From Candidatus Thorarchaeota archaeon (GTDB taxonomy: Archaea > Asgardarchaeota > Thorarchaeia > Thorarchaeales > Thorarchaeaceae), in contig DXJO01000020.1 in assembly GCA_019057475.1 (NCBI GenBank), positions 113,412 through 177,411 of the forward strand: a stretch of 64,000 nt of DNA, in the 5' to 3' direction. Shown one piece after another: positions 50,093 through 63,774 of this stretch. A model generated the notes under the pieces. The model was given only the letters and a program-made list of their open reading frames with translations. It did no database searches and was not told the DNA's origin. Positions within the stretch are counted from its first letter, which is position 1. Each line of letters starts with the position of its first letter. Made by a program: the position numbers and the translations under genes.

Positions 50093-51415
50093 TTACATGA
50101 ATCTCAAATGTGCATATGCGGGCGTGTCAGTGTCGAAAGCATAGTGGACTTTCTGATAGTCCTTTCTAAACTCTGCAACTTCAGCTGCAATCTTGTTCAC
50201 ATCCTCACCTTTCATGACGACACGATGCATGAGCTCTGCGATTGCATCCATCTCAGACTCCTTCATGCCCAGTCTCGTCATCTCGCTTGTTCCCAGTCGA
50301 ATTCCACCGGGTGTCTTGTAGTCGCGCCCCATCTTCTTGTCCCATGGCAGAAGGTTACGATTGATCACAATGTTCGCGTTTTCCAGCTCTTCTTCCACCG
50401 TTCGACCGTTTTTCATTGGTGAGTCTGATATGTCCGCTAGAACCACATGGGATTCGGTGAAGCCCTTGTGTTCTGCAATCACTTTCCATCCTCTCTCGTG
50501 GAGCGCCTGTGCCAGAGCTTTGGCATTCTTGAGTATCTGGTCCATGTATGCATCTCCAAACTCAGTCAGCTCAGCGAGTACTACTGCAAGTCCAGCCACG
50601 TTGTGGAGATGGTGATTACTAAGCATCCCTGGGAATGATGCCTTCTTAATCGGTTCGGCGAACTCAGCCTTGGATAAAACAATGCCGTGCTGCGGGCCAG
50701 GCATAGTCTTATGCGTTGAGGCAGTCATGATGTCTGCACCCTCCCTCAACGGGTCTTGAAACAGTCCTGCTGCAATCAGACCTGAAACGTGCGCTGAGTC
50801 ATAGCCAATCTTCATTTCGTACTCGTCAGCAATCTCTCGAAACTCCTTCACCGGATGTGGGAATGGGAATACACTGCCACCGAAGAGCAAGAGCTTGATC
50901 TCCTTCCCGTCTGCATGCATTTTCTTAATCAGCTTCATGCTTGCATCCACATCGATGTTGAACTCATTATCGTCAAAGATCCAGTTCCTCACTTTGTGGC
51001 CTCTTATTGCTCCAGCAGTTCCCCCCAGGTTCTTCCTAGCATGAGAGATGTGTCCGCCATGTGCGATTGAAAGAGCCATCATCCTATCGAGGGGTGCCAT
51101 AACTGCTGTGTACATCACCAGATTAGCGACTACTCCGGACACCGGCCGCACGTCAGCAAACTCTGCTTTGAACAGTCTCTCAGCGAGTTCTATGCAGATT
51201 AGCTCCACCTCATCGATGTACTTACAGCCTGCATACACCCTCTCTCCCGGCCAGCCCTCTGCATAGCGGTCTCGAAAGTCACTGACTATCGCAGACCTAA
51301 CGGCTGGTGATGACACATTCTCTGATGCAATGAGGTTGATTGTATTCTGCATCCATGTGTCATGTTTCTCTAAGAGTCCAAATACTTCATCGTAAAGCTT
51401 CTTGTGGTCGCTCAA
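50093..51415 (-). CDS. glyA: Serine hydroxymethyltransferase
   Basis: NLIASEN, RYAEG, GGHISH, STHKT, GIRLGT; TTG start after AAGGAGG. Confidence 0.96.
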   Translation of the reverse strand: MSDHKKLYDEVFGLLEKHDTWMQNTINLIASENVSSPAVRSAIVSDFRDRYAEGWPGERVYAGCKYIDEVELICIELAERLFKAEFADVRPVSGVVANLVMYTAVMAPLDRMMALSIAHGGHISHARKNLGGTAGAIRGHKVRNWIFDDNEFNIDVDASMKLIKKMHADGKEIKLLLFGGSVFPFPHPVKEFREIADEYEMKIGYDSAHVSGLIAAGLFQDPLREGADIMTASTHKTMPGPQHGIVLSKAEFAEPIKKASFPGMLSNHHLHNVAGLAVVLAELTEFGDAYMDQILKNAKALAQALHERGWKVIAEHKGFTESHVVLADISDSPMKNGRTVEEELENANIVINRNLLPWDKKMGRDYKTPGGIRLGTSEMTRLGMKESEMDAIAELMHRVVMKGEDVNKIAAEVAEFRKDYQKVHYAFDTDTPAYAHLRFM

Positions 51416-51496
51416 ACATAGAGCCTCCTTATCCTGAAGACGTTGGCCGCTAGACTTCGGTTTGTTATATGACTTATGCAACCTACGTAGTCAACA

Positions 51497-51979
51497 TTAG
51501 AGAACCCAGCCCCAAAAGGTGACTATGAACATGGCTTCGCCCGGGAAGTAAACTAGTGCTCCAAATGGCACTCTAACAACGTTCTTAGGCACATCAACTA
51601 CTGGAATTGTTGACCCGAGATAATCATATGGTTCCTCAGGTCCTCCAAGACGATCTGTCACTAAATCTATTGCATAGTCATTAGTCATCCAGGGTGACCA
51701 TGCAAGAAAACCAAGAATTACTAAAATCAATACAATCTTTGATTTGTGTGACCTCACAAAACTGGTTCCCGACCTTAGATGTGGCTTCTGCGAATAGAGA
51801 ACGAGTACCACACCAAGAGGCATAAAGAGTAGCATGAACCAGCCCAACATAATAAACACAATACCTATCCATAGAAGTCTTCTCCCCCCAAGCCGCACCA
51901 AACCCGGTCTTGATTCAGCTGCCGGAAGGCGACAAACTCTCTTAATCACATTGAATTCATCTAGTTGTTCTATTTCCAT
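51497..51979 (-). CDS. Hypothetical membrane protein
   Basis: Hydrophobic segments; coupled to upstream HTH gene. Confidence 0.55.
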   Translation of the reverse strand: MEIEQLDEFNVIKRVCRLPAAESRPGLVRLGGRRLLWIGIVFIMLGWFMLLFMPLGVVLVLYSQKPHLRSGTSFVRSHKSKIVLILVILGFLAWSPWMTNDYAIDLVTDRLGGPEEPYDYLGSTIPVVDVPKNVVRVPFGALVYFPGEAMFIVTFWGWVL

Positions 51980-52437
51980 TGCAATTGCCTCATTATCAAT
52001 TTGAAAAGTTTCTCACCAAGTCGAGTAGGTGCCAAGTCTTTCGGCAGAGGAATCTCCCATTCTTCTGCTAAGTTCCGAAGCACTTCGTCGCAATTTTCCA
52101 TCATGTCACAGCTATCACAATCACCCCTGTGTGAAAACCAAACTTGGACTCCCATCTTATGAGAGTAGGTGATGTATGTTAAGGAATCATGAGCGTGACA
52201 ATAACCCACCGCAAAACCGTATTCTGGGCTCATGTTTTGGAGAACAATGCGGCTCACTTTTGCTGTATGTCTAAGAAGACTCTCAATTCGCTCTTCCGCT
52301 ATTCTCTGCGCTTGACTCACATATGGTCTTGAAACCGCTAATTCCTTGGCGATGTCCGACGGCAGATTATTCTGCCTTCTTCTCAGCCAGATAGTACTCT
52401 GTTGCTTTGTTGGATAGCGAATTCCGATGGACATCAT
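51970..52437 (-). CDS. HTH transcriptional regulator with Cys/His C-terminal domain
   Basis: SDIAKELAVSRPYVSQ HTH; H..DC.SC...C. Confidence 0.75.
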   Translation of the reverse strand: MMSIGIRYPTKQQSTIWLRRRQNNLPSDIAKELAVSRPYVSQAQRIAEERIESLLRHTAKVSRIVLQNMSPEYGFAVGYCHAHDSLTYITYSHKMGVQVWFSHRGDCDSCDMMENCDEVLRNLAEEWEIPLPKDLAPTRLGEKLFKLIMRQLQWK

Positions 52438-52456
52438 TGATCCCCGCGAGTAGCAG

Positions 52457-52518
52457 TTAACTGATTTCGTGCAACTCCGGACAGCTCACTCATATAAATT
52501 AACCGATTTCATGCAACT
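52457..52518. promoter_or_regulatory. Two 20-bp direct repeats flanking the TATA box of the HTH gene (putative operator)
   Basis: TTAACTGATTTCGTGCAACT (52457) and TTAACCGATTTCATGCAACT (52499), 42-bp period; minus-strand TTTATATG at 52491-52498. Confidence 0.7.
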
Positions 52519-52720
52519 ATCTAATGAAATTCATTTTAACCTGAAGACGTTGGGCGCTAGACCTGTCTTCGTTATGTGACTTACGACAAGACGAAAGCCG
52601 GCAATACCGCAATCCCTATAAACCAAGAGAAGCGAACGACCGTTCCGTGGGCCAGTGGCTACCCAGGGAGAGTTCATAGACTTCAACTGGATAGAGATGA
52701 AGGGGAGTTTGGGCCAAGCT

Positions 52721-55700
52721 TTAGTAATCCCTGAAGAATATCACTCCCTCTTTCAAAAGGATGTTCTTAACTTCCTCAATGACCCTTTCAATGGTTTCAT
52801 CATCAATACTATACTGCTCAAGCTTTTCTCCAACCTCTCGTTCTATGAGATCAGGGTCTACCCCACCTGCCATCTCTGTCCAACCCTGATAGGTGTGTAT
52901 CCACTGTGTAACTTGAATAGAAACATACTCGCTCTCTTCGGCGACGAAGTTCGCAACTATCACCTGTCCTCCAGCCGCATCCCTTGTTATATCCACTGAT
53001 TCAAATTGTAGTCCTGCAATTTCCTTCTCTTGGATAAGAGAGAGATGGTCTTCAATCTCTTTGTCGACCAACTGTTTCATTATTTTGCTATCAGAGAACC
53101 CTCCTTGATCCAGTACTTCCTCCATTCCTTCCTTCAAGAGTGAAGATAGATGTTCTCTCTCTAGCATCTCAACTTTGGGCACAATAACTATGTGGACCAT
53201 CTTTTGAAGAGTAAGCTCAGATACAAGTCTAAATTCAACTCGATCTTCGAATCTCTTTATCTCAGGACTCCAACCATCAAGGAGGTAGATTCCTGGGTAT
53301 ATTGCTCTCTCCTTTCTCCAACGCATAACGTGTATAGATTCTCTGAACTCCCTAGGCAAGTCTTTGGACTCTGGAATCCGAATATCATACCACATCCATT
53401 GGCCGTCATAAGCACGATAGGAAATCGCACCTGTTTCAAGAAACGCTGCAAGAGCTGGACCGGTGAACTTGATCTGTTCTAGTTCTCTGATCTCTTCAGG
53501 AACCTTATCATCGGAGTAGAAAGTTATTCTCCAACAAGCGCCATGTCTGTATATTGACTCGTTGAATAATGGCTCCGGTTGTCCAGGGTGACCGTCTACA
53601 TCTTGCAGGTATTCAATAACCCTCTTGGTTGCCTTGGAGTGTTTTGTTATGCTCTCAAGATTCTGACTTCTCAGTGGACAAATATGATAATCATGACTGA
53701 TTTTAATTCTCTGAACAACACCTTTACTGAAACTAAGGAATGCTTCAGCCGTAGGTGGAAGTGATACTGATTCAATCTTGAAAGGGTCACTCCTAAGGAC
53801 GAAAGGTCGTAGGATTTTCACATCCTCATCAAATTCGATATCATCAAACCTGTTCCACACATAGTGGTTTTCATCTATGACAACTGGCTCGCATGAAAAA
53901 TCAGGCCGTCGTAAGATCTCAAGTACATCCACAGTTCTTTTGATTAGTAACTGTCCAATCTCATCCTCACTCCCATGATTTAGTAATGAAATCCTGAACA
54001 TTTGCGCTTCATGGTCTAAGTACACATGACACTTAACAGATATACAATCTCGGAACACAGCTGAAATGAGACCGAGACCTACTTTGATATAATCTGCAAG
54101 ATTCCTTGGTGGCGCCCTGATATTGTTTCCAGCTACCCCTAGAAGAGTTGAGTCATCTCTCAGAGTCATCGACATGAGGAGTGTGACAGTTTCGCGTCTT
54201 CGTCTGTAATACTCGATTCTCCCCACTGGCAACCAATTCGAAGTCTTTCCATTGTAAACCCAGAGACCTTGAATCCCCCTTTGAGTGGCAACCATAATGT
54301 CTATTCCCTGTTCAGGGTCCACTCGTTCTGACAATTCCCTGAGTAAAGTCAGATCGCTTGTTCCCCAGAAGGGTTTGTTTCTGCAGAATCCTTTCAAAAC
54401 ATCAAGAATCAAACCCTCTTTCCCAGAGGGACGTCTAAGGTAAATCATACTCATTTCATGACTGCCTAGATTTGTCTGAAAGGTCAAAAAGAGCTGCTGT
54501 GGACTATCACTATTATTCCTCTCTACAAAACATGCTCGACCAAAGAGAACATCACTTACTTGCTCTCCTCTCAGGATTTTCTTCAGACCTTTAGCTCTCT
54601 CTCTTAACCGATCGATAAGTTTTGTTCTATGGAGAAACGACTCTCCAGTATTATGTTGAGAGTGGTATTCTGGACTGAAGCCCACACCTATCAACTGAAA
54701 GGGTACGAGATAGTTCCAGAGCTTTTCTATCAGACTTCTAGGTGAATCGAGAGTTCCTGATTCATAGAGTGATATCAGGAGAAGAAGGAAGAGATGGTTG
54801 CCAACTATTAGTAACAGGTCTGGGTCTTTAGCAAGAAGTTTCTTCAGTTCTATCTTCTGATTCTCTAAGAGGCCATCTGAAATCCATGAACGTTGTTTCT
54901 TCAAGGCCATCCAAATTTCCTTACTCAAATCATGAGTTTCGAGGAATACACGGATTGTTCTTAGAACGTTAAACACATCACTCTGCAAATACCCATCAAC
55001 TAATTTCCCATCAACAAGTCTGTCCAGAGATTCAAGAAACTCTTTCCATTCTTTTTTATCACCATGTCGTTTCGCAATTGTTTTAGCTATGCGTCTTATC
55101 CCACTAAGCTCTTTTCTAACCAGAGTCAATCTATTGGAACCGTAAAATTTCAGTAGACCAATATGTGGTGGTCGTGTGGTTTTCCTTGGAGGGGTTCTGT
55201 GCAAACGAGTTACCCTGTACTCTCTTGTATGGTTTATCATTTCCAACGGTTCAAGCTTTTTCACTCGACCATCTGCATCAACAGAGGTCTGATGCTGATA
55301 TGGCTCGAAGACAACCCTCGAAAGGAGTGACGGTGGATTAGAACTAACACCGGAGGGTTCTTTCTTCTGAATCAAGAATTGGCTCTCTTCTTCGGAATCT
55401 GCCTTCTGATAGAATCTGCTGAGATGTGGAACCAGCTCAAGCACATCATTATTATCATCCTCACAATAGTTTCTAAGATAGCCCTTTCTTATGGAAGAAT
55501 AATTGGACCTAAGATAGAACACTTGTTGCTTGTCTATATTCTTCTCCCGATTATTATCAGGTCTAAACTTTTCTCCCCATTGGTACAATGGTGTAATCAA
55601 AACAGGGTCAATGCTGAAATCATTCTTTCTCTCAGTCACAACCCATCTGACATCATCATCTACAGGAACATAGGATCCATATCTCCTCGGAGCCATAGGC

Positions 55701-58120
55701 AAGTTGTAGACAATCTCATTAATTACCTGCATCCATGGACTGCTTGGATAAAAGGGGGCGACACATCGAGTATCATACTTCTGACTCGTCTGACTCAGCG
55801 GTACAGGTCTATCGAACCAGAGTACTGTTAAACGACGAGGCATCTTCTCGATAAACCAAAGTAAAAACTCATCAAGAAAAGATTTCTTTTGTTTTGAGGT
55901 ACTTCTTCTAACTTTATCCAAACCTGTAACAACAATGAATGGTCTTCTCTTATTCCTGAGGCTCACACTCAGTTCTCTGCCAATAGTTTCAAGAGTATCC
56001 CTTTCATTTACATATGATGAAAGAGGTTCTGACATATCAACGAAGGTTATCTTCTTCCTCAATAGCCTCCGAATGCTTTTCGAATGAAGACTGGCTCGGA
56101 GGTTTTGTTCTCTCAAGCCAGGACTCTTGAATTCGCCTGCAAAGTCAAACCACACAATATCCCTATGCTTTCCTCTCACTCGTTCATGGATATATTTCAG
56201 TCCATGCCAATTGGCAGCTATCTCTGCCGCAGACTGAGAAGGAGATCCTTTCCCTGACACTGTGAGGTACAGAATAAACTCTCTGTCATCATCACGAAAT
56301 CTTGAATACTGGAAAGGATTGAACTCTTGGATGTTAGCAGTTGGAATTGTATTTCTATTCTCACAGTCACTATATACTACAAGTCCCATTCTGAAACTCT
56401 TATCCCCCAATGTAGGATAGAAGAGCTGCCCCTTCGAAAATGCATCATCTTGTGAGTTACTGTACGCTTTGAGAATCAGATTTCTGATGTTACTCCTTAG
56501 GGTTTCCCAATTCTCCTTTAAATCAACAACGAGCACTCCTTTCATCAGCCTTTCAGGAGGACTGACATCACTCCGTACGTATTTCCTATAACTAGAGAGT
56601 ATGACTTTCTCATATGCATCAAGCTGCTTCCTTCCATAGACAGTTGGAGTTGAGTCGATGACATCTTGCCACTCCATATCCTCTGACTTTCTCCTATCCA
56701 TGATTGGTTCAACAACTCTTCTGTTCAGGTCCTTTGACTTTGTAGATGTTGCATACAGGTCAAGTTTGTAGAAACACTTGGTCTTGACTTCGATGAGAAT
56801 ACACGGTTCCCAGATAGTAACTGGACTTGACTCATCAGCTCTCTCCAAATTCTTTCTTCGAAAAACGAGAATATCGACCCGTCCTCTGCCATCAGCCACA
56901 GTAACCTCGCAGGTAAACAAGAAATCAGTTTCTTCTGTGACCATTTCGTCACCATGCCTGATTGAGCCAAAAAGTGAAAATGGCTGAACTGAGAAGTTTG
57001 AGTTGGCAATGAAATCATGAAAAGCAGAGCCCATCATCCGACTGCTTTCGAGCAGGCTCTTCATTGCATGCTCTGCATCAGCTCGAGTCAGTATCCCATT
57101 CTTAACTAGGGACATCACCTTTTCCACATGAACCCTCCACTCCGGATGAAGGTCCAAGTCACACCGTTCTGTTACATCTGAGAAGAAAGTGTCCAGCTCA
57201 TCCTCACTCACATCTTCAGGGTCGGAGGCATCTACTTCTCTTGGCTCATCATCCATGATTGCTTCTAATTGGTCTGGCTCATTGGCAATTAGTGATTCTG
57301 CTATTGCGTGATCCTCTGTTCTTGCATCCATCAAATGACTTGAAATTTCCCCGGTAATCGATGGAGGTCGACCGTTCACACCACCATACACCGCTCGGAT
57401 CTCATGAACAATTTCTCGAAGCTCTCTTACCCCTTTATGGATGAATCCCTTCTCTCCCCTCTTCCTCTCAGTGTAAACATATTCGAGATAGGGCACGAGT
57501 CGCTCGATGAGACCGTCAAGGTATCGTTTTGCATCCCTTATGGGGACTGAATATTTCATGCATTGTCTAGCAAGCTCGATACCATGACTTCTGATCATAT
57601 CCACGAAATCGAGCTCCGGAGTAGTATGAGTTGGGATATACTTTGGAATCCGAGCACTTCCTGGATAGATTCGTTTCACACTCTTAGCTTTGGTGATTAT
57701 CCGCACTGGTGTTGGGAATGGAAACCCTGATGCTCCAAGGTTTCTGATTCTTGCACCGTAATAGTCAGCGAGGATATTGATGTATTTTCGATCCTCTTTC
57801 CGTCTTCTTCTCTTCTCCTCAACATTCCCGTAAGGAACAGATGTATTCAGTACAATCTTGTTGTGGTTGCGACGGATGTTATTCTCCACACGCTGAAGGT
57901 GCCTTGCGTCTGGTCTTCTCTCCTTTACGGATCTCTGATAGTCTAGGAGGGCATCCTTCAGAATCTTCCTGATTCCCTTTCGACCCTTTCCTCCCCAGTA
58001 GAGGTGTTTTGTAGTTTTTGTTACCCTTCCTCTAGCTAGATATGCCGTTGCTGTTAGACCAGATTGCAGCGCTTTAGTGAGAACCTTCCCAGGGTTTTTT
58101 GGGAAACCTGCGTTTTTCAT
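52721..58120 (-). CDS. Giant multidomain protein: diverged Cas1-like domain + PD-(D/E)xK (Cas4/RecB-like) nuclease + degenerate P-loop domain
   Basis: E109/H165/D171/D174 in Cas1-like contexts; GRVD416...E444VK...QLDAY; SGKGSPSQS and IVVTGLD; 1799 uninterrupted codons. Confidence 0.75.
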   Translation of the reverse strand: MKNAGFPKNPGKVLTKALQSGLTATAYLARGRVTKTTKHLYWGGKGRKGIRKILKDALLDYQRSVKERRPDARHLQRVENNIRRNHNKIVLNTSVPYGNVEEKRRRRKEDRKYINILADYYGARIRNLGASGFPFPTPVRIITKAKSVKRIYPGSARIPKYIPTHTTPELDFVDMIRSHGIELARQCMKYSVPIRDAKRYLDGLIERLVPYLEYVYTERKRGEKGFIHKGVRELREIVHEIRAVYGGVNGRPPSITGEISSHLMDARTEDHAIAESLIANEPDQLEAIMDDEPREVDASDPEDVSEDELDTFFSDVTERCDLDLHPEWRVHVEKVMSLVKNGILTRADAEHAMKSLLESSRMMGSAFHDFIANSNFSVQPFSLFGSIRHGDEMVTEETDFLFTCEVTVADGRGRVDILVFRRKNLERADESSPVTIWEPCILIEVKTKCFYKLDLYATSTKSKDLNRRVVEPIMDRRKSEDMEWQDVIDSTPTVYGRKQLDAYEKVILSSYRKYVRSDVSPPERLMKGVLVVDLKENWETLRSNIRNLILKAYSNSQDDAFSKGQLFYPTLGDKSFRMGLVVYSDCENRNTIPTANIQEFNPFQYSRFRDDDREFILYLTVSGKGSPSQSAAEIAANWHGLKYIHERVRGKHRDIVWFDFAGEFKSPGLREQNLRASLHSKSIRRLLRKKITFVDMSEPLSSYVNERDTLETIGRELSVSLRNKRRPFIVVTGLDKVRRSTSKQKKSFLDEFLLWFIEKMPRRLTVLWFDRPVPLSQTSQKYDTRCVAPFYPSSPWMQVINEIVYNLPMAPRRYGSYVPVDDDVRWVVTERKNDFSIDPVLITPLYQWGEKFRPDNNREKNIDKQQVFYLRSNYSSIRKGYLRNYCEDDNNDVLELVPHLSRFYQKADSEEESQFLIQKKEPSGVSSNPPSLLSRVVFEPYQHQTSVDADGRVKKLEPLEMINHTREYRVTRLHRTPPRKTTRPPHIGLLKFYGSNRLTLVRKELSGIRRIAKTIAKRHGDKKEWKEFLESLDRLVDGKLVDGYLQSDVFNVLRTIRVFLETHDLSKEIWMALKKQRSWISDGLLENQKIELKKLLAKDPDLLLIVGNHLFLLLLISLYESGTLDSPRSLIEKLWNYLVPFQLIGVGFSPEYHSQHNTGESFLHRTKLIDRLRERAKGLKKILRGEQVSDVLFGRACFVERNNSDSPQQLFLTFQTNLGSHEMSMIYLRRPSGKEGLILDVLKGFCRNKPFWGTSDLTLLRELSERVDPEQGIDIMVATQRGIQGLWVYNGKTSNWLPVGRIEYYRRRRETVTLLMSMTLRDDSTLLGVAGNNIRAPPRNLADYIKVGLGLISAVFRDCISVKCHVYLDHEAQMFRISLLNHGSEDEIGQLLIKRTVDVLEILRRPDFSCEPVVIDENHYVWNRFDDIEFDEDVKILRPFVLRSDPFKIESVSLPPTAEAFLSFSKGVVQRIKISHDYHICPLRSQNLESITKHSKATKRVIEYLQDVDGHPGQPEPLFNESIYRHGACWRITFYSDDKVPEEIRELEQIKFTGPALAAFLETGAISYRAYDGQWMWYDIRIPESKDLPREFRESIHVMRWRKERAIYPGIYLLDGWSPEIKRFEDRVEFRLVSELTLQKMVHIVIVPKVEMLEREHLSSLLKEGMEEVLDQGGFSDSKIMKQLVDKEIEDHLSLIQEKEIAGLQFESVDITRDAAGGQVIVANFVAEESEYVSIQVTQWIHTYQGWTEMAGGVDPDLIEREVGEKLEQYSIDDETIERVIEEVKNILLKEGVIFFRDY

Positions 58121-58308
58121 TATAACAATGGTTTTATCATTACCTTATATATATTCATTTTATTGAGTATTGTCCATTATCTATTCTCCCATTTATCGCA
58201 GATAATGGCCGGTATCATAGATTTCCAGCGTTTCCATTTTCTAGTCTTGGTAAATTTAAATATATTATGAGAATATAATATTCTGTGGAATATTGAGAGT
58301 GGTGGCCG

Positions 58309-60456
58309 ATGATTAAGCAACAAAAAGCCCGGCGTCGTCCCCGGGAGCAAACGCAGTCTATGACTGAAGAGCAACATACAATGGATGACAAATTTAAATA
58401 TCCATCATCGGGAACGCCAAAAACGGGGCTAAGATATCTCACCGAGTCATTCACTCTCAATTCAGTAGAACGAATTGTGCAGAAACAAGGGAAAGGAAGA
58501 AAGCCTAAACCTATGTTTGGCACAGTTGATGGCATTCAGAAAGGAATTGAAAAGACCACAGGTCGAAAGGTCAAAGATGTTGATGTTCTTCTTCTTGGAG
58601 AGCGTTTCGCAGTCTATGTCAAACTCGTGAATATGGTCCTTGAGCGGGTCTATGTATCTGATGATAGAGCTGAATCAGTTGGCAGACAATTGTCCGAGCA
58701 TCGAGGAAAGGGATATAGCTTCCTGAAGAATTTGAAGTACCTCAGGTACAGGGACAATGAAGAGATTAAGACCATTTGCTTTGAGAGGATGTATCGAAAC
58801 GCCTTGGAACAGGCAGCAAGAATCATCCTGTCCGACTGGAAACGACGACAGCTAATGACTACTGCTCTGTCTGTTCTATATAGGGATGAAGAACTACTCC
58901 TGAAGCTTCTGAAGAACAAATACATCTCTTCTTTGCTGGTAAAAACAATCCGAAAGGAATGTGAAATAGTCAAGTCCAACGGGAAGAGTTACTACTATGT
59001 AGTTTCAGTCCTGAAGCAGCTTCGCCGCATATTGGATGAGAAGATACTCACAGAACGAGGAGAACCTCCTCGATTCAGGAAGAGTCAGCGAGTGCGAGTA
59101 AAGAAGTTTCTTGGAGAGGACTTAGACTCAATCATGGCTATAGTCCGGCCAACAGTGACTCAATGGTATAGAGATGGGTATCCTTTCTCTGTTCCAAAGA
59201 TGTTCTCGTTCTCAGAGGACTTTTCAGCTGGATCTGAGAGCAATATCGGACAGGGTTACTGGTATAGTGTTGACAGGAGTCCAGATCGCGAGAACGAGAT
59301 ACTGTTCTTTCTTAAGCTTCCTGAACCTCTTAATGGCGTGGAGCACAATGATTCTCCTTATCGCACAAAGACCTTGAGTTTTCGGTTCCTTGATTGGCTT
59401 CCTCGTGCGGCACAAAAGGATTCGAAGAAAGCTAACAGAGCCGAGAGAGATGGACATTACCAACGAGCAAAACAACTTCGATTTCGAGCTGCAAAGTTCA
59501 ATGACATGCATCAACAACTAATGAACACTATCGAATGCCAACACACCGCCTATCAACTCAAGCGACTCAAAGGTAGAAAGAACGTAGACACCGAGAAGAT
59601 CATACGACTGGAAGCCCGATTGACAGAATTGAATAGTTCCAGGAAATGCAAACCTCCACAGCTCGTGCTTCGCGAACACAAAGTCACCCTATATCTTCCG
59701 TTCCTACCACCTACTTACAAGGTAATAGAAACGACTCTTGGCAAGAAGAAGTATCATCGACGAGCAGGTGCTGATAGGGGTCTCCGTGTCCCCATTGCGG
59801 TATCTGTTCAGAAGGATGGCAGATACGTCGATAAACTCATTGAGATGAATGAGCTCCTGAAGAAGCGCATGCGGTTGCATGAGGACACAAAGTGGTTGCA
59901 GTCTGAGATAACAAGAACGCAGAACAATTGGGAAAGGAAGCATCCGGATTCATCCTATCCCTCTCACATCCTCAAGAAGCGACGACATCATGATGCGATA
60001 TGGGGAAGAATACGAAGGATTGATAGAGAGATTGCCCGTCAAGTCGCGTCAAGATTGGTCTGGTTCTGTGAGGAACATGAGGTCAAGACAATTGTCTTCG
60101 AGAATCTGAAGAACTATTCTGCTCCGTCTGGCTTCAAAAACCTCTCTTGGAATCTTACCGCTAACCTCTTTTCAAAAGTGTTTGAAACTGTTCGTTACAT
60201 GCGTCGGAGCATGGGTCATAATTATGGCGGTGTATGGACAGTCAGTCCTGCATGGACATCTCAGACCTGCCATCAGTGTGGTGAGATTGGTATCCGAGTT
60301 GCGAATGAAATCTCAACTTCCGAAATGAAAAGAGGTGAGTTCTTCTACTGCGTAGAGTGTAACGAGCATTTCCATGCTGATATCAATGCTTCACGAAACA
60401 TAATTCATGTTCAGCAAAAGAAAATGTCCAGTGCCGTTCCTGGACGGTCAGCTTGA
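58309..60456 (+). CDS. tnpB: Large TnpB/Cas12f-like RNA-guided RuvC nuclease
   Basis: RuvC-I GAD489RG, RuvC-II FE598NL, TSQTCHQCG...CVEC Zn finger, RuvC-III HAD691INASRNI; start may be 58360 or 58381. Confidence 0.88.
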   Translation: MIKQQKARRRPREQTQSMTEEQHTMDDKFKYPSSGTPKTGLRYLTESFTLNSVERIVQKQGKGRKPKPMFGTVDGIQKGIEKTTGRKVKDVDVLLLGERFAVYVKLVNMVLERVYVSDDRAESVGRQLSEHRGKGYSFLKNLKYLRYRDNEEIKTICFERMYRNALEQAARIILSDWKRRQLMTTALSVLYRDEELLLKLLKNKYISSLLVKTIRKECEIVKSNGKSYYYVVSVLKQLRRILDEKILTERGEPPRFRKSQRVRVKKFLGEDLDSIMAIVRPTVTQWYRDGYPFSVPKMFSFSEDFSAGSESNIGQGYWYSVDRSPDRENEILFFLKLPEPLNGVEHNDSPYRTKTLSFRFLDWLPRAAQKDSKKANRAERDGHYQRAKQLRFRAAKFNDMHQQLMNTIECQHTAYQLKRLKGRKNVDTEKIIRLEARLTELNSSRKCKPPQLVLREHKVTLYLPFLPPTYKVIETTLGKKKYHRRAGADRGLRVPIAVSVQKDGRYVDKLIEMNELLKKRMRLHEDTKWLQSEITRTQNNWERKHPDSSYPSHILKKRRHHDAIWGRIRRIDREIARQVASRLVWFCEEHEVKTIVFENLKNYSAPSGFKNLSWNLTANLFSKVFETVRYMRRSMGHNYGGVWTVSPAWTSQTCHQCGEIGIRVANEISTSEMKRGEFFYCVECNEHFHADINASRNIIHVQQKKMSSAVPGRSA

Positions 60457-60545
60457 CTTTCATGTCAAGATGTTCCATCTAACAATGATCGGTTAGTGGC
60501 TTAGCAGGATGGTTCGGTTCATTCAAAAGAATAAGGTGGCGGGCC
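60425..60545 (+). ncRNA. Putative omega-RNA-like scaffold and guide at tnpB 3' end
   Basis: Hairpins CCGT/ACGG, CTTGAC/GTCAAG, CCATC/GATGG enclosing CTAAC/GTTAG, ending GGTTCA-TTCA. Confidence 0.5.
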
Positions 60546-60613
60546 GGGCGGGATTCGAACCCGCGGCCAACAAGTTAAGAGCCTGTCGCTCTACCGGGCT
60601 GAGCCACCGGCCC
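60537..60613 (-). tRNA. tRNA-Lys(CTT), encoded CCA
   Basis: GGGCCGG/CCGGCCC acceptor; ACAGG-CTCTTAA-CTTGT; GTTCGAATC. Confidence 0.96.
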
Positions 60614-60837
60614 ATGATTTCGCATCTCTCCTGTTTTGGGTTATAGAGGTTTCGGAATGTTATGGGAATAGAAGGACCTATTTCTGAGAAGGCCTTTCGA
60701 AATATTTCAATCCACTCCTGACCCATAGAACCGATTTTTTGGATTCCTTGATTAAATCAGATATCCTATTTGGTTTTCAGAGTATTACACAGGAAACTTC
60801 TTCTTGCGGGTAGCTCTTATCTTTAGAGGTGATTAGG

Positions 60838-61539
60838 ATGCGTGGGGAATCCCATCTTCTTGTTTCAATACTCATCAGTCTCCCTACGAGCATGGTATTG
60901 TTCAATTTACTTCCTTCTGAGAATTTCAATGCTATTATCTATCTACTGGGGGGAGTTATGATAGGCAGTTTACTTCCTGATGTTGACGCTTCTGATGCTA
61001 AGGTCATGCATGGATACTGGAAACCTATAGGGCTGTTTGGAAAATACCTATTCTATAAGCCCATGACATGGGTTCTACGGAGCAGATCTGAATCATTTCA
61101 GGAACAACATCGTGGTTATCTACACTCGCTTATTGGATGTTTATTAGCAACTGTGTTCTTTGCAATTCCGATTGGGGTTATTTTTCTGGTTTCCATATTT
61201 CTCTGGACGGTTTCAATAGAGCTCGCATCCCTCATCTGGTATCTTTGGATTGGCCTACCGTTTGGTTTCTTGATGCATCTTTTTGAAGACAGTTTCACCA
61301 AGTCAGGGGTTCGCTGGTTCTTTCCAAGAGGCAAGGCATACTCCGGTCAAACAAGAACAGGAAAGAGAAGTGAGTACAACCTCACATCGGCATTCTTCAT
61401 CCTCTATGGTCTGATGACAATATTCGTGTGGATGCAACCCGCTAGTTACGAATTATTACTTGGGACTATCTTGGGGTCAATATTACTTCTAGGTGTTCTC
61501 TATGCTGTCAATCCGATAATAAGCAAGCTCAGTCAGTAG
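60838..61539 (+). CDS. YdjM-like membrane metal-dependent hydrolase
   Basis: SH, GSLLPDVD, HRGYLHS, HLFEDSFT.SGV. Confidence 0.85.
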   Translation: MRGESHLLVSILISLPTSMVLFNLLPSENFNAIIYLLGGVMIGSLLPDVDASDAKVMHGYWKPIGLFGKYLFYKPMTWVLRSRSESFQEQHRGYLHSLIGCLLATVFFAIPIGVIFLVSIFLWTVSIELASLIWYLWIGLPFGFLMHLFEDSFTKSGVRWFFPRGKAYSGQTRTGKRSEYNLTSAFFILYGLMTIFVWMQPASYELLLGTILGSILLLGVLYAVNPIISKLSQ

Positions 61540-61594
61540 AAAATCGAATTCTCAGGAAACAATCATTAGGTCAAACAAGAAATCGAATTCCTTC

Positions 61595-61900
61595 TTGCTA
61601 TGGTACCTCCTTCCTCTAGCTGGGATTCCAGCCCTAGCTCTTACCAAGCTCAAGTCCACACCGCGTTTTGGCCATACTTCAATAGCATGCCTATCCATCG
61701 GGCTTGTCATCATTGGTATGGTATCTCTAGCGGCTCTTGTTGTTGCTTACTCAAGTTGGCTTGTAATTGACACCAGTGGCGAGAACTACGCAACACCCTT
61801 CTCACTGCTCGGCCTAAGTTCTGGCATTCTTATCCTTTCAAGCACGATTGCATATGCTTTGACTCAAAACGATAAGGAAAGCCATCTTGTAGATGATTGA
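61595..61900 (+). CDS. Hypothetical membrane protein or fragment
   Basis: Three hydrophobic segments; TTG start without clear SD. Confidence 0.35.
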   Translation: MLWYLLPLAGIPALALTKLKSTPRFGHTSIACLSIGLVIIGMVSLAALVVAYSSWLVIDTSGENYATPFSLLGLSSGILILSSTIAYALTQNDKESHLVDD

Positions 61901-62055
61901 CTCGCATTTTCAAATTCCTCCCAGCCCACCATCCTCACTCTGCAAACAATCACTGAGCAAGGAAACCGATTGTCCTCGAGTAGACGTTATGGTTTCAACT
62001 TCCAGAACACATTTTACGAGCAACTGAAAATGTGTTTTGGCGGGTTCGACAAGGA

Positions 62056-63774
62056 ATGATACTACTAAACCCTAACAATCATACTCGCGAATATCCTGAT
62101 GAAGCATCAAGAGAAATCATGCTTAAGACAATCCAGTTCTTTGAGAACAAAGGAAAAGTCAAGCTCAAGAATGATGACCACGCATTAGTCTGGTATCAAG
62201 ATTTTCTTGATTATGTTAAGAAGGAGGAAATCTTCTACAAGCTACTTACGCCGCCAGAATACGGAGAGGAAGGTTGCCGTTGGGATACATGGCGAAACAT
62301 GGAGTTCAATGAGATTCTAGCCTTCTATGGACTGCATTACTGGTATACTTGGCAGGTGACAGCCCTTGGATTGGGGCCGATATGGATGAGCAAGAATGAG
62401 GGCGTGAAACAAAAGACAGCTCAACTGCTGAAAGATGGCGGAGTATTCGCTTTCGGATTGAGTGAGAAAGAACATGGTGCTGACATCTACTCATCTGAGA
62501 TGCTGCTCAAGGTGTTGGGCGATAACAAGTACGAGGCAAAGGGCAGCAAGTACTACATAGGGAATGGCAACATAGCTAGCTTGGTTTCCATCTTCGCCAA
62601 GACAGACAAACCTACGGATCCGGATGACAAGAAGTACGGAGACTACGTGTTTTTCGTTGCTGACTCGCAGCACGAGAAGTATGAATGTGTCAGGAACCTT
62701 GTTGCAGTTCAATCATACGTGGCAGAGTACAGGCTCAATGACTATCCAATAACCGATGCAGATATCCTATCCAAAGGGCGTGATGCCTGGGATTGCACGC
62801 TGAATACAGTCAATCTATGCAAGTATAATTTAGGTTGGGCGTCGATAGGGATCTGTACCCACGCATTGTATGAAGCCATCAATCACGCGGCTAACCGATA
62901 TCTGTATGGCCACTGGGTCACTGACTTTTCACATGTCCGTCATCTATTGGTTGATGCCTATTCGCGTCTTGTCGCGATGAAGCTGTTTGCCAAACGAGCT
63001 GGGGACTACATGCGAACAGCCACTCTTGAAGATCGTCGCTACATTCTCTATAACAGCATGGTGAAAATGAAAGTCACCAGTGAGGGAGAGAAAGTAATCG
63101 ACCATCTGTGGGACGTGATTGCAGCAAGAGGGTTTGAGGCTGAAACGTTCTTCTCCGCGGCAACTAGAGACATACGAGCGCTGCCCAAACTTGAGGGAAC
63201 AGTTCATGTCAACATGGCACAGATAATCAAGTTCATGCCAGCCTATTTCTTCATGAGTGATGAATGTTCTGAAATTCCGACGGTAGATGCTCCCAAGCAT
63301 GACGAGTTCATGTTCAATCAGGGCATAACAAAGGGGATGGGCCTGATACGGTTCCATGACTACCGTAAAACGTATGATACTGTCAGCTTGCCAAACGTAG
63401 ACGTTTTCAAGGAGCAGATCGACGCCTTCAACGAGTTCATGGCCGAGGCGACACCCGATGAAAAACAGGGAGAGGATCTCGACTTCATTCTCAATGCTGG
63501 AGAGCTATTCACGTTGGTGGTGTATGGACAGCTCATTATAGAGAACGCGGAGAAGCACGATATTGGCGATGCACTACTCGATCAGATATTCAACATCATT
63601 GTACGCGACTTCTCATTGTACGCCCTAAAGCTTCATTCCAAGCCGAGCAGTACTGAGAAACAGCAGGAAATACTTCTGAGATGCATTAGGAAACCAAATG
63701 TCGATGAAGATCGCTTTGGGGAAGTGTGGGAGGAAGTCCATTCGTTGAAGGATCTATATGAAATGAAGCAATAG
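62056..63774 (+). CDS. Acyl-CoA dehydrogenase family protein
   Basis: AFGLSEKEHGAD, KYYIGNG, PKLEGT. Confidence 0.9.
   Translation: MILLNPNNHTREYPDEASREIMLKTIQFFENKGKVKLKNDDHALVWYQDFLDYVKKEEIFYKLLTPPEYGEEGCRWDTWRNMEFNEILAFYGLHYWYTWQVTALGLGPIWMSKNEGVKQKTAQLLKDGGVFAFGLSEKEHGADIYSSEMLLKVLGDNKYEAKGSKYYIGNGNIASLVSIFAKTDKPTDPDDKKYGDYVFFVADSQHEKYECVRNLVAVQSYVAEYRLNDYPITDADILSKGRDAWDCTLNTVNLCKYNLGWASIGICTHALYEAINHAANRYLYGHWVTDFSHVRHLLVDAYSRLVAMKLFAKRAGDYMRTATLEDRRYILYNSMVKMKVTSEGEKVIDHLWDVIAARGFEAETFFSAATRDIRALPKLEGTVHVNMAQIIKFMPAYFFMSDECSEIPTVDAPKHDEFMFNQGITKGMGLIRFHDYRKTYDTVSLPNVDVFKEQIDAFNEFMAEATPDEKQGEDLDFILNAGELFTLVVYGQLIIENAEKHDIGDALLDQIFNIIVRDFSLYALKLHSKPSSTEKQQEILLRCIRKPNVDEDRFGEVWEEVHSLKDLYEMKQ

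Follow-up and report, generated by a model that had tools for sequence, protein, structure and literature searches.

A divergent aCas1-TnpB gene pair beside tRNA-Lys in a Thorarchaeota genome, probably a copy of a selfish element family

The window analysed here is a 64,000-nt stretch of DNA from a Candidatus Thorarchaeota archaeon (contig DXJO01000020.1, positions 113,412 to 177,411; metagenome-assembled genome of 3.34 Mb in 56 contigs). Near an intact tRNA-Lys(CTT) gene it carries two genes in head-to-head orientation, one encoding a giant protein of 1799 amino acids (aa) and the other a 715-aa RuvC nuclease. The locus belongs to the already published aCas1-TnpB kind and is, with a probability of about 0.6, one of the copies of the Asgard aCas1-TnpB family of selfish elements, which in Thorarchaeota consist of two genes. 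The pairing is obligate, and the pair is present in multiple copies and patchily distributed.

Five giant paralogs with 28-50% identity are found in the host genome, all of them in head-to-head arrangement with a TnpB-like gene (5/5); one solo TnpB-like gene and two fragments are also present. A profile of the predicted Cas1-like domain at the N-terminus of the giant protein found the family in 49 of the 87 genomes of the order, with 0-20 copies per genome, and its matches nearly always open frames of 1400-1980 codons. Forty loci were sampled irrespective of TnpB. All 40 have a divergent TnpB-like gene, with a head-to-head spacing of 150-250 nt in 38, and together with the host genome 45 of 45 copies are paired. 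The TnpB-like genes form two groups, one of 700-760 aa, which includes the copy in the window, and one of 560-620 aa; solo tnpB copies also occur (C42b, L015, L016 and L063).

The co-occurrence of the two genes (5/5 own-genome copies, 40/40 sampled) bears out the association proposed in the first-pass annotation of the window. That annotation had also described the genes as diverging from an AT-rich region of about 190 bp, for which the coordinates were confirmed (Table 1), and had noted the absence of a CRISPR array, cas2, tnpA, tyrosine integrase and PolB. Both promoters presumably lie within the spacer. The two open reading frames (ORFs) do fill the unit, with no space for a further ORF of at least 150 aa; no CRISPR-like repeat array was found in positions 51000-62200, and the repeat search of this interval gave no pair of terminal inverted repeats.

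Some observations on the family concern other genomes and other copies. About 20 copies of the Cas1-like domain are present in G043, for example at C49:3500-16000 (locus L108), and this genome would be the best place to look for recent transposition. Loci L060 and L061 (G074 and G075) lie at the same tRNA-Lys site as the locus in the window; their TnpB is 53% identical to that of the window while the giant protein (1555-1561 aa) is only 25% identical, a pairing which indicates that giant gene and tnpB can be reassorted between subfamilies. The giant paralog at C9:15748-21003 (L011) aligns from query residue 6 and lacks an ATG, GTG or TTG within the opening ~58 codons; a different start codon may be in use, or the start may have been lost.

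The 715-aa protein is a divergent, enlarged TnpB/Cas12f-like nuclease. The RuvC triad (D489, E598, D691) is intact, and both the triad and a zinc ribbon of the form CxxC...CxxC (C654, C657, C681, C684) are invariant among three paralogs. PF07282 matched with 45.2 bits, above the Pfam cut-off of 26.3, and the NCBIfam model guided_TnpB with 59.2 bits, below its cut-off of 100. The nearest solved proteins are TnpB and Cas12f (E 9e-8 to 1e-5), and about 300 extra residues are found at the N-terminus.

The N-terminal region of the giant protein was modelled with AlphaFold2 from an alignment of 17 N-terminal regions (predicted local distance difference test, pLDDT, 83). In the VIA-align comparison the top 27 rows are all Cas1, of many subtypes, or casposase, with Z 7.2-12.0 (10.0 for the casposase 6opm), and these matches span 137-193 residues of the C-terminal alpha-helical domain of Cas1; below these rows come unrelated folds with Z 6 or less. 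Cas1 also takes 7 of the first 8 rows in the Foldseek ranking, with weak E-values. Residue 1 of the model aligns to Cas1 residues 78-130 in most rows, and the N-terminal beta domain of Cas1 therefore has no counterpart in the giant protein. Residues E79, E101, N115, H165, D171 and D174 are invariant in 17 diverse homologs, and a single, non-significant hhalign alignment sets N115, H165, D171 and D174 on the N, H and D-x-x-E motif of Cas1. Because of the Cas1 fold and this placement of the invariant residues, the modelled N-terminus is accepted as a likely Cas1-like catalytic domain. The Cas1-like N-terminus of the first-pass annotation thus stands as regards fold, but comprises only the alpha-helical half and is invisible to Pfam and profile searches. 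Pfam matches to Cas2 (E 0.11-0.26) were judged to be noise, NCBIfam showed no known family in the giant protein, and no canonical Cas1 (PF01867) was found in the host genome at E <= 1e-10.

A second model, covering residues 330-1520 (pLDDT 81), contains a RecA/KaiC/RAD51-like fold at residues 608-896 (Z about 12.5 over ~205 residues, root-mean-square deviation 3.6-3.9). Its P-loop position reads SGKGSPS, departing from the canonical Walker A GxxxxGK[ST]. For residues 390-560 the nearest named atlas clusters are all PD-(D/E)xK families (scores 0.81-0.86, lead level), and in the homolog alignment D416 and K446 do not vary and position 444 holds an acidic residue throughout. An atlas feature search of residues 900-1799 gave no usable match. 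The dN/dS (nonsynonymous to synonymous rate) ratio of the giant gene is 0.23 in comparison with the ortholog of L027 (95% nucleotide identity), which shows that the gene is maintained by purifying selection.

Across 26 loci of the window's TnpB group, conservation covers the 3' end of tnpB and ~30 nt beyond it. The region holds a hairpin, TCCAG-N8-CTGGA (60427-60444), in which the closing pair is U-A in 18 sequences and C-G in 8, a compensatory change, and it ends with the motif ACAATGATCG (60482-60491), conserved in the 26-locus alignment as ACAATGAWCG. Only two short helices were returned by RNAalifold, the middle of the alignment being gappy, and Rfam at E <= 1 gave tRNA only and no family for the scaffold. 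In three pairs of related copies located at different sites the similarity is gone directly after the terminal motif. We take 60491 as the right end and the bases beyond it as the guide position in the IS200/IS605 sense, and 60427-60491 as a candidate 3' scaffold of an omega-RNA. The unit had been drawn at first pass as ending just past tRNA-Lys; conservation stops 45 nt ahead of the tRNA 3' end. The left limit, where conservation stops, is at about 52603, at a block common to three genomes. Homology to L027 ends at about 52601-52606 and homology to G031 at 52587.

Direct repeats at both ends are clear in L108, a younger relative. The repeat is 33 nt (30/33 identical) to 68 nt long, with a score of 27 against a null maximum of 13; it corresponds to the last ~21 codons of a host gene, and the right copy begins 2 nt after the terminal motif, at the guide position.

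The link to tRNA genes suggested at first pass is real and was found at ten tRNA-Lys loci and one tRNA-Arg locus. In ten loci from several genera, an intact, inverted tRNA-Lys(CTT) is located 43-79 nt past the right end, and the outer flanks of these loci differ. The ~20 nt at the guide position in the window are a diverged sense copy of tRNA-Lys positions 3-22, and the guide positions of the ten linked loci are diverged sense copies of positions 2/3-22. Local scores of the guide against tRNA-Lys are 10-18 in the linked loci, anchored at tRNA positions 2-6, as compared with a mean of 6.4 and a maximum of 10 for the guide positions of 27 unlinked copies. A distant locus beside tRNA-Arg(TCG) has a 12/12 match between its guide position and the 5' part of tRNA-Arg and constitutes an independent case.

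A second, decayed sense copy of the tRNA-Lys 5' part is found at the left end of the window's unit. Over the first 13 nt, GGGCCAGTGGCTA, this copy does not differ from the allele that element-free genomes have; the counterpart is GGGCCAGTGGCTAGC in L028 and GGGCTGGTGG in L014. The copy is preceded by an orphan promoter block with a TATA-like CTATAAA (52616-52622) about 27-33 nt ahead of the tRNA-like start, a layout that matches that of the promoter of the intact tRNA-Lys (about 60614-60660), and this block is kept in the window, L014 and L028. Because the window's copy lies between two sense tRNA-Lys fragments, the guide is read as the 5' end of a tRNA-Lys. Most simply, the element would lie inside a duplicated stretch of its target, here the start of a tRNA-Lys gene copy.

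Further tRNA-Lys sequences were noted around these loci. The tRNA-Lys(CTT) genes beside the element (L030-L061) have six alleles which differ mostly in positions 5-21; four element-free loci have one common 5' sequence, GGGCCAGTGGCTAAGCCAGGTATAGC, and this allele is the closest to several guide segments. Downstream of the element, in the orientation of both 5' fragments, there are decayed tRNA-Lys copies or 3' fragments with a terminal CCA (window 61860-61931, plus strand; L028 11286-16122; L029 10232-15297; L014 16701-20333), with five remnants 0.8-2 kb apart in L028. The region looks like an integration hotspot with serial att-like remnants. Elsewhere in the host genome, at C19:95320 and C19:96027, two copies of GGTGAAACAGAAGTGGCTTAGCCT.TTGGGGCACGGG are found 707 nt apart and share an 11-mer with the guide segment. 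A downstream inverted guide match as a property of every copy was rejected, being above null only in some tRNA-linked loci; in the window's copy it was not above null.

In the proposed mechanism, the giant protein would be the integrase or transposase of the element, and a complex of TnpB and omega-RNA would take the sequence beside the right end as its guide. This complex would cut target sites that lack the element, resulting in retention or homing as in IS200/IS605. The guide would be the right-hand copy of the duplicated target, which here would be the tRNA-Lys 5' end. A fuller version, according to which a Cas1-type integrating element homes through TnpB into tRNA 5' ends, the 20-68 bp repeats are staggered-cut target duplications with the right copy as guide, and the element has spread between genomes at the same tRNA-Lys site while the neighbouring functional allele diverged from the guide, is unlikely.

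Several results weigh against a Cas1-driven selfish element. The N-terminal beta-sandwich domain of Cas1 and Cas2 are both absent. Pfam sees no Cas1 in the giant protein or in the 17 homologs, even at E 10, a profile of the N-terminal domain found no Cas1 among PDB sequences, and hhalign against 10 Thorarchaeota Cas1 proteins gave a non-significant E of 0.37. Only one of 13 complete elements, L108, has a clear flanking direct repeat, and since the differences between its two copies are mostly synonymous in the shared frame, an att-like or homology-based origin would fit as well as a staggered-cut duplication. Two or three of the remaining 12 elements are borderline (the window, L060) and the others are at noise level, as was a search with wider flanks; the tRNA-fragment repeat of the window scores 9 with a null mean of 8.3, each copy matching tRNA-Lys separately. 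The guide segment and the left copy differ by 7 mismatches in 20, and the guide-position 20-mer has no other match in its own genome with up to 4 mismatches. Finally, the own-genome copies are only 28-50% identical and therefore give no sign of recent movement there.

The locus could also be a fixed host module for defence or regulation, with TnpB and its RNA as the recognising part, the giant nuclease/ATPase as effector and a Cas1-like domain that does not integrate. Purifying selection on the giant gene, the glyA/tRNA-Lys neighbourhood common to the genus and to genus g3, the old own-genome paralogs (28-50% identity) and the conservation of the guide-position segment across 10 loci are all in agreement with this, and the combination of PD-(D/E)xK with a P-loop-type domain is common in defence systems. 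A fixed module is, however, difficult to reconcile with 0-20 copies per genome and absence of the family from 38 of the 87 genomes, with related copies in unrelated flanks where homology ends sharply, or with the flanking direct repeats of one element. The locus has moreover been lost by deletion in close relatives, and guide-position sequences are wholly different between unlinked copies. We regard a host module as unlikely.

Two other explanations appear less probable still. Guided transposition like that of CRISPR-associated transposons (CAST), in which the tRNA 5' guide would bring TnpB to the tRNA gene and the giant protein would insert at a fixed distance downstream, would explain the intact tRNA of the same kind that is always 43-79 nt past the right end, with the same geometry at ten tRNA-Lys-linked loci and one tRNA-Arg-linked locus. 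It would also suit linked TnpBs that form three clades mixed with unlinked ones and differ between G053 and G055 at the same site, as well as tRNA-Lys alleles beside the element that differ from the single allele of the four element-free loci. On the other hand the RuvC site is intact, unlike that of Cas12k, unlinked copies have no inverted guide match downstream, homology between related copies does not resume past the guide position, and the guides mismatch every tRNA allele seen at several positions, including the seed; insertion into a copy of a tRNA gene is a simpler account of a left tRNA fragment that has a promoter. The chances of this explanation are slim, and so are those of a Cas1 likeness that reflects only an arrangement of helices with no common function, any mobility then being due to the PD-(D/E)xK and RecA-like domains or to host recombination at tRNA fragments. 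That the sequence searches give no significant Cas1 signal, that chance often gives helical models a Z near 13, as the tool itself notes, and that the region is rich in tRNA-Lys fragments able to support recombination would all be expected from such a fortuitous likeness. It does not readily account for the best 27 rows all being Cas1 or casposase of many subtypes with a clear gap to other folds, for Cas1 in 7 of the first 8 Foldseek rows, or for N, H and D-x-x-D residues that are invariant in 17 diverse homologs and are put on Cas1 motifs by the sole hhalign alignment.

A copy of the Asgard aCas1-TnpB family thus remains the preferred reading, and the literature named at first pass exists. 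Altae-Tran 2023 (PMC10691335) describes aCas1-TnpB loci in Asgard archaea, citing Makarova 2020 (CRISPR J), suggests aCas1 as the transposase, reports flanking repeats and an GTTCACTCA motif, and names the aCas1-associated TnpB groups Cas1H-Asgard-1 and Cas1H-Asgard-2. The association as such is therefore not new. In common with these loci, the window has an Asgard host, a diverged Cas1 homolog beside TnpB, no Y1 or serine TnpA and a conserved region downstream of tnpB. The published loci are flanked by repeats, of which a clear case was found here in L108 and a borderline one in the window. Nearly all loci of the shorter TnpB group have the published GTTCACTCA after a variable stretch; the 700-760-aa group of the window, in contrast, ends in ACAATGAWCG, and the window has only the one-mismatch GTTCATTCA (60519-60527), which is not conserved in its TnpB group. 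Flanks of tRNA fragments, a RecA-like domain, deletion remnants, a sharp right end at ACAATGATCG and 33-68-nt repeats of the L108 type were not found in the available part of Altae-Tran 2023 (PMC10691335).

The 3' region of the shorter group was read at C42:34447-36300, C9:21191-23100, C18:46484-48400 and loci L073-L107. It consists of GGGTGGAAC, 19-25 variable nt and then GTTCACTCAC. On visual inspection the variable bases are often complementary to bases just past the motif, and conservation runs 30-100 nt beyond it; because of this the published 'hypervariable' stretch may be a stem and not a guide. A tRNA gene is found within 450 nt in six of about 24 loci of this group.

The locus shares with IS200/IS605 elements the RuvC domain and zinc ribbon, a structured region that overlaps the tnpB 3' end and stops at the right end, the flank at the guide position and the existence of solo tnpB copies. 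It differs in having no TnpA, the partner being a divergently transcribed Cas1-like fusion of 1400-1980 aa, and in a TnpB almost twice as long; IS200/IS605 elements make no long direct repeats, whereas one aCas1-TnpB element (L108) has them. As in casposons, the presumed integrase has a Cas1-family fold, according to the model, and there is an association with tRNA genes and, clearly in L108, a flanking direct duplication. Unlike casposons, the unit lacks PolB, the beta domain of Cas1 and the helix-turn-helix (HTH), the search for terminal inverted repeats found none, TnpB is present and the duplication far exceeds 14-15 bp. The Cas1-Cas2(-Cas4) module likewise has the Cas1 catalytic-domain fold and a duplication of repeat-like length, and Cas4-Cas1 fusions combine a PD-(D/E)xK nuclease with Cas1 in one polypeptide, as the giant protein may do, but the window's unit has no Cas2, array, leader or Pfam Cas_Cas1 match. 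Unlike in type V CRISPR-Cas there is no array near the effector. Type V-K CAST systems have a type V-like RNA-guided protein, a mobile element located by tRNA genes and a tRNA-like guide. In contrast to these, the RuvC site here is intact, Tn7 genes are absent and the guide lies outside any array. A match to aloposons (Wu et al. 2022) was weighed and discarded; their tandem genes code for 3000-6000 aa and are accompanied by a ParA-like gene, and TnpB is unmentioned.

Purifying selection acts on the window's copy and on that of one sister genome, and nothing points to recent movement. The giant gene is complete in the sister genome (L027; 95% nucleotide identity), with other DNA left of 52601. 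In G031 and G082 the final 125-137 codons of tnpB are left together with scaffold, guide segment and tRNA, in G085 a scaffold remnant, and in G007, which belongs to another genus, a tnpB remnant is found between tRNA-Lys and glyA. No clean empty site was found in close relatives, and because they show remnants instead, the copy looks old and eroding in some lineages. Deletion remnants take the place of the empty glyA/HTH-tRNA-Lys site that the first-pass annotation had suggested comparing, and the copy is not a recent insertion. That annotation had also held that a fixed, syntenic locus would speak against mobility; this is partly the case for the window's copy, in that members of the genus and g3 have the glyA/tRNA-Lys neighbourhood in common, but not for the family. 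In a quick tree the TnpBs linked to tRNA-Lys fall into three clades, with unlinked TnpBs interleaved, and G053 and G055, of one genus, have different TnpB clades at the same tRNA-Lys site, so the family moves or is exchanged. A separate observation from the same genus concerns L065 (G085:C335:1-7059), where genes of 394 aa and 509 aa lie between glyA and an omega-RNA-like remnant by tRNA-Lys, in the position that the element has in the window.

Natural links that connect the integrase family of CRISPR with the transposon ancestor of Cas12 are few; the aCas1-TnpB association is one of them and has so far been described from sequence only. The locus and its relatives give it a testable anatomy, with a right end, a tRNA 5'-end guide segment, long flanking duplications in one relative and a domain map of the giant protein. 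If the Cas1-like domain is an integrase and the duplications are its product, this would bear on the origin of CRISPR repeats and of adaptation; if Cas1-type homing holds, a Cas1 integrase would make the repeat that programs an RNA-guided nuclease, and the stage postulated on the way from transposons to CRISPR arrays would have a living example. None of the results here shows the locus to be intermediate between IS605 and type V CRISPR, as was proposed at first pass. Should the domain not be an integrase, the family is still abundant and unexplained; a genome can hold as many as 20 copies, and its hosts belong to the archaeal lineage closest to eukaryotes.

Table 1. Features of the aCas1-TnpB locus, in positions of the window
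Feature	Position	Strand	Basis or remark
Orphan tRNA-type promoter block	52603-52648	+	left limit of the conserved unit
Left copy of tRNA-Lys 5' part	52649-52688	+	tRNA positions 1 to about 41, decayed
Giant gene, 1799 aa	52721-58120	-	ORF list
C-terminal ~900 aa of giant protein			alpha/beta domains
RecA/KaiC-like domain	aa 608-896, nt 55433-56299	-	deviant Walker A, SGKGS
Putative PD-(D/E)xK nuclease region	aa 330-607, nt 56300-57133	-	D416, E444-x-K446
Acidic linker			between Cas1-like and PD-(D/E)xK regions of giant protein
Cas1-like alpha domain	aa 1-250, nt 57371-58120	-	structure model
AT-rich divergent intergenic spacer, 188 nt	58121-58308		GC 0.39 in its 500-nt bin
TnpB/Cas12f-like RuvC nuclease gene, 715 aa	58309-60456	+	ORF list
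Omega-RNA-like 3' scaffold	60427-60491	+	hairpin, second nested stem region, terminal ACAATGATCG
Guide-position segment	60492-60530	+	right-hand repeat; first ~20 nt GTTAGTGGCTTAGCAGGATGG
Intact tRNA-Lys(CTT)	60537-60613	-	inverted relative to both tRNA fragments; outside the conserved element

A direct repeat of 48 nt, 83% identical, was found to the left of the unit (51429-51476 and 52536-52583) and corresponds to the first 16 codons of glyA. It flanks a 1.1-kb insert with two genes, one HTH-like (155 aa) and one for a membrane protein (160 aa). This insert is missing from the sister genome of L027, which has a single copy of the glyA start; the insert may be another small insertion with a long target duplication.

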